IMG/VR virus record: IMGVR_UViG_3300042691_016949
Coordinates: 6,227-70,226 of that record
DNA length: 64,000 nt
From: a virus
Direction: 5' to 3' (one strand)
The position numbers and the translations under genes were made by a program. The notes below the pieces were generated by a model. That model ran no database searches and was not told the DNA's origin. It saw only the letters and a list, made by a program, of their open reading frames with translations. The first letter of the stretch is position 1. Each line of letters begins with the position of its first letter. Below, in pieces: positions 2,708-3,061 of this stretch.

Positions 2708-3061
2708 GGGCTTGAAACGGTCTCGACTTTGTGACGGGATCTGTGAACTCATGCCGAGGATGGTGGTTGGCCTCGTTAAAACTACCCACCGACACATCAA
2801 CTGCCAACACTAACGTGAGCCTGTTCGATGCACCGCCCTCCCTCTCGGAGGCGGACGAGATCCTTGCCCGTTTCGGGTATGTGGATCGCGAGGTTGCTGT
2901 CGCCGCCTGAAGTGCGATGGGAACGCAGTGTCTGCGGTGCGTAATCCGTAGGCTGGTGGAGGCGCCGTCACCTCTGAGTATGAGGCCGGTGCCCTAATAA
3001 GCATGTCAACGCACAGTGATCTAAGCAAAGGACGCGGGTTCGACTCCCGCCAAGTCCACCA
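2708..3061 (+). ncRNA. ssrA: tmRNA (one-piece, 354 nt); tag ANTNVSLFDAPPSLSEADEILARFGYVDREVAVAA* at 2803-2910
   Basis: Acceptor GGGCTTG/CAAGTCC with G3-U70; 5' ...TCGAC; 3' GGACGCGGGTTCGACTCCCGC..ACCA; resume context ATCAACT-GCC; tag ends in AVAA-stop. Confidence 0.95.

Follow-up and report, generated by a model that had tools for sequence, protein, structure and literature searches.

We analyzed a 64,000-nt stretch of viral DNA (the window), which spans positions 6227-70226 of an IMG/VR virus record of 70,226 nt (100% complete by CheckV), and found at 2708-3061 on the plus strand a gene for a transfer-messenger RNA (tmRNA) with a tag of 35 amino acids. Every sequence and structure hallmark of a one-piece tmRNA is present in this RNA. 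Judged from alignments, the tag is a member of a family of at least 22 distinct tags that occur almost only on viral contigs and share the invariant core ADEILAxFGY, and codon comparisons indicate purifying selection on the encoded peptide along all 35 codons, read from the upstream GCC. We place at about 72% the probability that the element is a functional phage tmRNA with a conserved, translated 35-codon tag, the core of which would serve as a docking site read by the host.

Anatomy of the tmRNA and its detection

The Rfam tmRNA model RF00023 matched 2708-3061 (+) over its full length (model positions 1 to 374) with 102.1 bits and E = 8.9e-39, the curated cut-off being 47 bits. The search of the whole genome record returned the same tmRNA at E = 2.2e-42, and no other Rfam family exceeded its threshold within the 64-kb window. 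The gene is complete, in one piece and 354 nt long, and all of its parts described here lie on the plus strand. Inspection of the sequence revealed a 7-bp acceptor stem, in which the 5' strand GGGCUUG (2708-2714) includes G3 of the G3:U70 alanine identity pair and pairs with CAAGUCC at 3051-3057; together with the encoded ACCA, the 3' strand occupies 3051-3061. The T-arm, GCGGG UUCGACU CCCGC (3034-3050), is aligned by Rfam with posterior probability '*'. Acceptor stem, T-arm and encoded 3' CCA complete the tRNA-like domain.

Both the Rfam alignment and inspection place pseudoknot PK1 at 2755-2790, with stems CGAGG/CCUCG and GGUGG/CCACC; its start is common to the window tmRNA and to two relatives from other contigs, L163 and L100. 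A single-stranded spacer of 12 nt (2791-2802) separates PK1 from the resume codon GCC (Ala) at 2803, which opens an in-frame tag of 35 sense codons, ANTNVSLFDAPPSLSEADEILARFGYVDREVAVAA, closed by TGA at 2908-2910. The assignment of this frame (2803-2910) rests on inspection, family alignment and codon periodicity, and the remaining two frames hit stops within 2 to 8 codons. Relatives share the layout of PK1, short spacer and Ala codon, with spacers of 11 to 12 nt in an A-rich ...AUAAAU context. The tag core E-A-D-E-I-L-A-R-F-G-Y (tag residues 16 to 26; 2848-2880) was delimited from the invariant columns of the family alignment, and the tag ends in the hydrophobic, Ala-rich VAVAA.

An earlier sequence-only reading of this DNA had proposed a complete tmRNA with G3:U70 and a 35-residue tag, and it proved exact in coordinates, strand, completeness and tag. 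Its statement that the tag is much longer than usual is in agreement with the modal length of 10 amino acids given in PMC11915505. It had also noted the absence of smpB and the consequent need for host SmpB; indeed, PF01668 was unmatched anywhere in the 70,226-nt record.

ARAGORN, which that reading had suggested as a check, came back empty for both the window and the genome under all settings tried. To diagnose this, ARAGORN v1.2.41 was run on window positions 2608-3161 with tag codons removed in silico. The tmRNA was detected with 33 or fewer tag codons and missed with 34 and 35. Because the same RNA is detected once its tag is no longer than 33 codons, the miss reflects a ceiling of the program on tag length and not a defect of the gene. 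Among 20 relatives, ARAGORN missed nine, assigned a tag of 21 to 22 residues to nine, and chose a wrong frame in two. A survey with this program reported tmRNA in 402 of 18,146 phage genomes, with two-piece forms in marine myophages (PMC9004378), and the tmRNA database described in 2025 admits as main-protocol candidates only hits of ARAGORN and of BLASTN against known entries, its viral input being RefSeq viruses (PMC11915505). Such ARAGORN-based surveys would miss the long-tag class or report truncated tags, and they undercount long-tag tmRNAs and understate tag length.

Parts of the region 2600-4100 are present in 24 public sequencing runs from 20 studies, labeled mostly as freshwater, lake, drinking-water, wetland and 'fungus' metagenomes. 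Of the four runs examined in detail, one is on record as a metatranscriptome (X19). Its only exact contigs are two of 151 nt, 2722-2872 and 2873-3023, both within the tmRNA, which gives a weak hint that the tmRNA accumulates as RNA. No contig of this run covers 2600-2701 or 3110-4100; such gaps are uninformative on the RNA units downstream. Two other runs carried strain variants, namely 2874 C>T, synonymous in the core Phe codon, and 2810 C>T, which changes Thr3 to Ile in the variable N-terminal part.

The tag family and selection on its reading frame

The search for relatives started from a spurious 59-residue open reading frame (ORF) with a GTG start, within which the tag lies in frame, and was directed against a collection of 5.8 billion proteins. 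It retrieved a database protein, P0002, whose C-terminus is a second 35-residue tag, ANSNIDMEMGLSMAEADEILARFGYVEDEALSLAA. The core shared by the two was back-translated into DNA patterns, one strict (twelve codons) and one loose (D-E-I-L-A-x-F-G-Y, nine codons). The strict pattern found five metagenome loci, with the motif lying inside an Rfam tmRNA in four and the fifth cut by a contig end; in IMG/VR it gave 0 matches, since K or Q occupies the variable position in most members. The loose pattern found 41 IMG/VR loci. In 28 of them the frame stops 9 to 10 codons past the core, by which they were classed as tag-type, and the other 13 are ordinary ORFs (10 of one protein family), from which no inference was drawn since the pattern selects for the motif. 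All 20 tag-type loci tested with Rfam (of the 28) are tmRNAs, at 96 to 148 bits.

With the window included, the family comprises 33 loci and 24 distinct tag strings. Two strings cut at the 5' end and that of locus L007, in which the resume codon is unclear, were left out, leaving 21 complete unique tags, 19 of 35 residues and two of 34; P0002 adds another 35-residue tag. In window numbering, A1, S13, A17, D18, E19, I20, L21, A22, F24, G25 and Y26 are invariant in the alignment of the 21 tags. When whole tmRNAs of distant members were aligned, the tag core was the sole block of invariant columns, the tRNA-like domain being more diverged. The tag had been regarded at the outset as a singular oddity, a view that gives way here to a conserved family carried almost only by viral contigs.

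Carriers range from 4-kb fragments to 178-kb records, and local guanine-cytosine (GC) content spans 0.38 to 0.56 at the family loci and is about 0.59 around the window gene. The tag nearest to that of the window, ANTNISLTEAPSLEQADEILARFGYSEKPVLATV, belongs to L163, a 47.8-kb record with terminal repeats, and the two tmRNAs are homologous along their length. Searches beyond the family returned little. Against 50,697 phage records, blastn with the window tmRNA gave no match and tblastn with the tag gave only chance matches to Arthrobacter-phage endolysins (E = 9). Two exact motifs, one spanning the 5' domain and PK1 and the other the 3' end, had 0 matches each in IMG/VR, and a tag profile had 0 matches among PDB sequences at E up to 10.

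Two divergent members, L006 (2252-2664, minus strand) and L007 (2308-2645, minus strand), have T-loops that by eye lack the usual GUUCGA motif, and score 66.1 and 50.8 bits with Rfam; in both, G3:U70, ACCA and the core of the tag are preserved. L006, L008 and L010 belong to a cluster of tRNA genes (Ala, Ile, Trp, Met) that also contains an HNH endonuclease.

The patterns used in the search were derived from the peptide, and the argument for translation therefore rests on positions outside them and on third-position divergence. Among 18 unique sequences of the main subfamily, the pairwise difference at codon positions 1/2/3 was 0.161/0.070/0.278 for codons 1 to 16 and 0.137/0.139/0.361 for codons 26 to 35. 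The flanks of the same sequences had no such periodicity, with 0.41/0.39/0.35 in the 30 nt before the resume codon and 0.41/0.41/0.40 in the 33 nt from the stop onward. Codons 6 to 16, which lie outside both the patterns and a covarying hairpin over codons 2 to 5, gave 0.095/0.059/0.281 in 17 unique tag sequences. Across these 17, Ser12 is invariant yet coded by TCC, TCG, TCA and TCT, and Glu15, Glu27, Glu28 and Glu29 are invariant with GAA and GAG mixed. Among the distant members (the window, L100, L006, L007 and L009), third positions vary in 10 of the 11 conserved core codons and first or second positions in none, a comparison of which the part inside the pattern is partly selected by the search. 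Pro-Ser upstream of the core and [D/E]-x-E downstream of it, both outside the strict pattern, are also conserved.

The upstream GCC stands 11 to 12 nt past PK1 in all members examined. Given the third-position-biased variation outside the patterns and the absence of periodicity in the flanks, we conclude, on this comparative evidence, that translation starts at this codon and that the whole 35-codon frame is decoded. The sequence-only reading had allowed that the true resume codon might lie further downstream, which is not what we found, as periodic codons and the invariant Ser and Glu codons are situated upstream of the internal start chosen by ARAGORN.

The middle of the tag had been described as resembling an amphipathic helix, and structure prediction agrees. 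AlphaFold, applied to the alignment of 21 tags, returned a mean predicted local distance difference test score (pLDDT) of 78.5 and predicted helices at residues 14 to 23 (block pLDDT of 86 to 89) and 29 to 34. Both faces of the central helix are invariant, one acidic (D18, E19) and one hydrophobic (I20, L21, F24), and tag length is held within one residue. For these reasons a docking surface at a fixed distance from the C-terminus fits better than a passive spacer. Since neither a protease nor an adaptor is encoded by the phage, the reader should be a host protein, and the core is probably read by a host factor.

The RNA itself is also constrained within the tag. RNAalifold, run on 14 tag regions, predicted 33 pairs, of which 14 show one or more compensatory changes. 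The clearest element is a 5-bp hairpin over codons 2 to 5, right after the resume codon (alignment columns 18-31), in which the synonymous choice between AAU and AAC at codon 2 covaries with that between AUU (Ile) and GUU (Val) at codon 5; at two pairs, both sides have changed in 5 and 4 sequences. A helix containing the stop codon is supported as well. Structure this close to the start of a tmRNA reading frame is unexpected, and could influence which frame is chosen. In the core, GAC GAG ATT CTC is constant, third positions included, in the 17 main-subfamily sequences.

These features raise the alternative that the core is kept for the RNA, through folding, processing or ribosome loading, with the long tag a by-product of which only the Ala-rich C-terminal end matters. 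The compensatory pairs are in agreement with it, comprising both the hairpin at codons 2 to 5 (UA:6/CG:5 and AU:6/GC:4) and the stop-codon helix, as is the unvarying GAC GAG ATT CTC, which can form CGAG-AUU-CUCG. We nevertheless consider it unlikely: the pairs predicted over the core (columns 56-63/85-92 and 69-72/76-79) have no double changes and so give no positive evidence of structure, core third positions vary in distant members with the amino acids unchanged, codons 6 to 16 and 26 to 32 show coding periodicity with invariant Ser and Glu from mixed codons, and a helix is compatible with many peptides, yet nine residues are invariant in 21 tags. Another possibility is that translation resumes inside the core (AEADEIL... 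or EADEIL...), giving a tag of 21 to 22 residues that is only moderately long, as ARAGORN reports for 9 of 20 relatives. Its 33-codon ceiling forces the choice of an internal start, the upstream GCC lies 11 to 12 nt past PK1 in an A-rich context, and the codons upstream of the ARAGORN start are periodic and far more conserved than the flanks, all of which makes a downstream start highly improbable. We give equally little credence to the RNA acting, untranslated, as a decoy that titrates host SmpB or interferes with trans-translation in the host. The tRNA-like-domain-only RNA of mycobacteriophage DS6A has been shown to inhibit tmRNA in this way (PMC4131195 and PMC11915505) and our phage has no SmpB, but a decoy needs no frame, and here it is open for exactly 34 to 35 codons in all 21 complete unique tags and evolves like coding sequence.

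A host origin, either as a chromosomal tmRNA carried over from a prophage boundary or as a copy of the host's own long-tag tmRNA with nothing special to phages, also has to be weighed. The phage encodes an integrase (30111-31127), tmRNA genes are common attachment sites (PMC9004378 and PMC11915505), and one family member, L100, lies on a contig binned as prokaryotic. Against the first form of this idea, the tmRNA is 27 kb from the integrase and lies between methyltransferase and tail genes. In the two closest relatives the flanking methyltransferase is 75% and 59% identical and the record has no tmRNA anywhere, and in one of them the methyltransferase gene directly abuts the tail gene, which argues that the tmRNA is part of an inserted RNA-gene cassette rather than host DNA at a prophage end. 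As to whether a host lineage carries the same tag, which the sequence-only reading had raised against itself, a scan run to completion over 185,579 prokaryote species, each represented by one genome, found the exact core in none. A looser scan of prokaryotes gave at least 120 matches; among the matches listed, 119 are not tag-type and one, L100, is a family member. Most of the listed non-tag matches are ordinary protein C-termini of the form ...GEHTDEILAEFGYS..., which may resemble those of family III CoA-transferases. L100 itself sits at the end of a 20-kb, 37%-GC contig (L139, G005:C117 1-20000) in an archaeal metagenome-assembled genome (MAG), where the tmRNA is cut by the contig end; this contig of glycan-synthesis genes is rich in glycosyltransferases, sugar epimerases and methyltransferases and has a radical SAM enzyme. 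This MAG contains no SmpB and no other full tmRNA, and of 31 genomes searched only the MAG itself has the L100 sequence, none of 30 relatives (0.4 to 1.1 Mb) doing so. With a jumbo phage, a bacterium and mis-binning all considered, a mis-binned viral or bacterial contig seems most likely. Together with the 28 members on IMG/VR viral contigs, whose GC contents differ as given above, these observations leave a host-derived gene very unlikely.

Several points weigh against our preferred interpretation, that of a functional phage tmRNA with a translated tag and a host-read core. Members were found with peptide-derived patterns, and conservation at pattern positions is thus partly built in by the search. 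Part of the nucleotide invariance of the core may be structural rather than peptide-level, as GAC GAG ATT CTC never varies and can pair. Family C-termini vary (LAA, MAA, MAV, LTA, PVA, ALA and ATV), and to judge from these endings some members may lack a ClpX-type degron. The AlphaFold model is that of an isolated 35-residue peptide. The contigs hinting at expression are of low depth (2.6 and 3.1), and RNA libraries can contain DNA. One member lies on the prokaryote-binned contig of uncertain origin, and the tag-type count of the looser scan is a lower bound, such that a cellular carrier is possible.

Genomic setting and the downstream RNA units

The record is that of a tailed phage with genes for terminase, portal, tail collar, tail fibre, integrase, DnaB helicase and RNA ligase. 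Among 50,697 isolated-phage records, its terminase had no tblastn match and its DnaB was at most 34% identical to any; by these comparisons the phage is far from any isolate. Pfam identified no Clp, Lon, SspB or ClpS among the 56 ORFs of the phage, and a search of 4 other carrier records gave no SmpB in any of them. ClpP-fold genes in phages are commonly prohead proteases. We did not count as evidence the ClpP-fold gene present in three of four carrier records; the window phage and L163 are without one.

The tmRNA lies within a stretch of about 1.4 kb that has no convincing ORF (2605-4073), between the methyltransferase and tail-collar genes; this RNA block is missing from the two closest relatives. 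Scans of 2400-4200 for consensus elements detected neither a sigma-70 promoter nor an intrinsic terminator. Some 140 nt preceding the tmRNA are conserved with a relative, L002 (window 2605-2707; L002 2690-2830), in which the place of the tmRNA cassette is taken by about 1 kb of different, unrelated sequence. Within the conserved piece are a GTGGGC...GCCCAC hairpin and GGTTCTTTTACA; this piece may be a leader common to both or a site at which different RNA cassettes land.

Directly 3' of the tmRNA, and within the same inserted block, folding delineated six tRNA-like or hairpin RNA units at 3070-3725 (+): unit 1 at 3070-3216 (tail ACA), unit 2 at 3221-3314 (CCA), unit 3 at 3319-3427 (UCA), unit 4 at 3435-3521 (CCA), unit 5 at 3526-3656 (CCA) and unit 6 at 3661-3725 (UCA). 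Each is closed by a terminal stem of 7 to 11 bp with a short single-stranded tail, and the junctions between units are A/T-rich, for example ATTTTGA or AATTTGA. Units 1 to 3 possess a canonical 5-bp T-arm with a 7-nt loop beside the closing stem and no proper D-arm or anticodon arm. Rfam tRNA scores in the array fall below the cut-off (26.6 and 16.6 bits vs 29), ARAGORN calls units only at relaxed settings and poorly (2-bp D-arm), and fold z-scores range from -1.4 to -3.8. No standard tRNA gene was found in the phage. The units may be tRNA-like decoys or processing modules. In one run (X10), a contig joins 3653 back to 3312, placing unit 5 before the junction of units 3 and 4, with the two sides of the joint having 9 letters in common, and the units seem to be shuffled as cassettes at CCA-AATTTGA junctions.

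Two further observations concern the rest of the genome. The phage encodes an RNA ligase (PF09414 plus a PHA02142 OB-fold domain; phrog_968, E = 3e-51) at window 37629-38732 (+) and a calcineurin-type phosphoesterase (PF00149) at genome 3999-4859 (L142). Along with the tmRNA and the array of tRNA-like units, the two enzymes could make up a toolkit for RNA repair or translation rescue that counters tRNA- or mRNA-cutting host nucleases, a suggestion that we infer from gene content. In addition, an ORF of 2,898 residues at window 9124-17820 (+) includes an ART-PolyVal domain, the ADP-ribosyltransferase of polyvalent proteins (PF18760, E = 4e-13, residues 1115 to 1294); going by this domain, the product would belong to the giant polyvalent proteins that certain phages and conjugative elements package.

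Known systems and a possible route for tagged proteins

The window tmRNA shares with canonical one-piece SsrA (E. coli, ANDENYALAA) the G3:U70 pair, T-arm, CCA, the order of PK1, short spacer and Ala resume codon, and presumably the dependence on SmpB; both tags start with A-N and end in a hydrophobic Ala-Ala. It differs in being phage-borne without smpB, in the length of its tag relative to the mode of 10, and, unlike ordinary tags, in having a conserved core predicted to be helical. Phage tmRNAs as such are already known, from eight Bxz1-like mycobacteriophages and Bacillus phage G, besides the DS6A RNA mentioned above (PMC4131195). What is added here is a genuine, translated 35-residue tag in a conserved, almost only viral family. 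The accessible text of PMC4131195, PMC9004378 and PMC11915505 contains nothing on conserved long tags, nor do titles and abstracts elsewhere on phage or viral tmRNA within a partial coverage of journals.

Of the known phage examples, we read the Bxz1 tag as ATDTDATVTDAEIEAFFAEEAAALV (25 residues). Like the window gene, Bxz1 has a one-piece tmRNA among tRNA-type genes and a longer-than-usual acidic tag, and by eye both tags carry E-I-x-A-x-F before an Ala-rich end; their similarity is not significant (hhalign probability of 0.2%, no BLASTP alignment). The Bxz1 tag is short enough for ARAGORN and its gene lies in a true tRNA cluster, whereas downstream of the window tmRNA there are only tRNA-like RNAs. 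A longer ssrA tag, read by Lon instead of ClpXP, is found in Mollicutes such as Mesoplasma florum (PMC9382460). It offers a precedent for tag length and protease choice changing together; that tag is cellular, from a lineage without active ClpXP, ends in NYAFA and bears no sequence relation to the window core.

Drawing on what is known of trans-translation, we propose that host alanyl-tRNA synthetase would charge the RNA with alanine via G3:U70, that the charged RNA would enter stalled ribosomes with host SmpB and EF-Tu, and that Ala plus 35 residues would be appended to unfinished proteins. The tag could be regarded as three modules: an N-terminal A-N-x-N piece, much as ordinary tags begin; an acidic amphipathic helix, capped by Pro-Ser and terminated by F-G-Y, which might present a specific docking surface to a host adaptor, AAA+ protease or chaperone; and the hydrophobic Ala-rich C-terminus, of a kind recognized by ClpX-type proteases. 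The phage would thereby add rescue capacity during infection and itself decide how tagged proteins are handled. The proposals of the sequence-only reading, that the tag may recruit a different adaptor or protease and that it may act in tRNA-depletion defence, are both hypothetical. More tentatively, and as a possibility that we rate below even odds, the helical core could be a phage-specified address label, either rerouting rescued proteins off the SspB/ClpXP route to another host factor or occupying host proteases with tagged proteins.

Tags of tmRNA are textbook ten-residue degrons, and the only role known to us for a tag is the marking of proteins for proteolysis. The retention of both length and a two-faced helical core across phage tmRNAs whose bodies have otherwise become too divergent to align implies a specific reader, and the tag is a short, synthesisable peptide with which that reader can be sought. 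If the address-label reading is true, phages of very different hosts (local GC of 0.38 to 0.59) would reprogramme the output of ribosome rescue during infection and not merely add capacity to it. As tags of more than 33 codons are invisible to ARAGORN, phage genes for long-tag tmRNAs may be widespread and have gone mostly uncounted.

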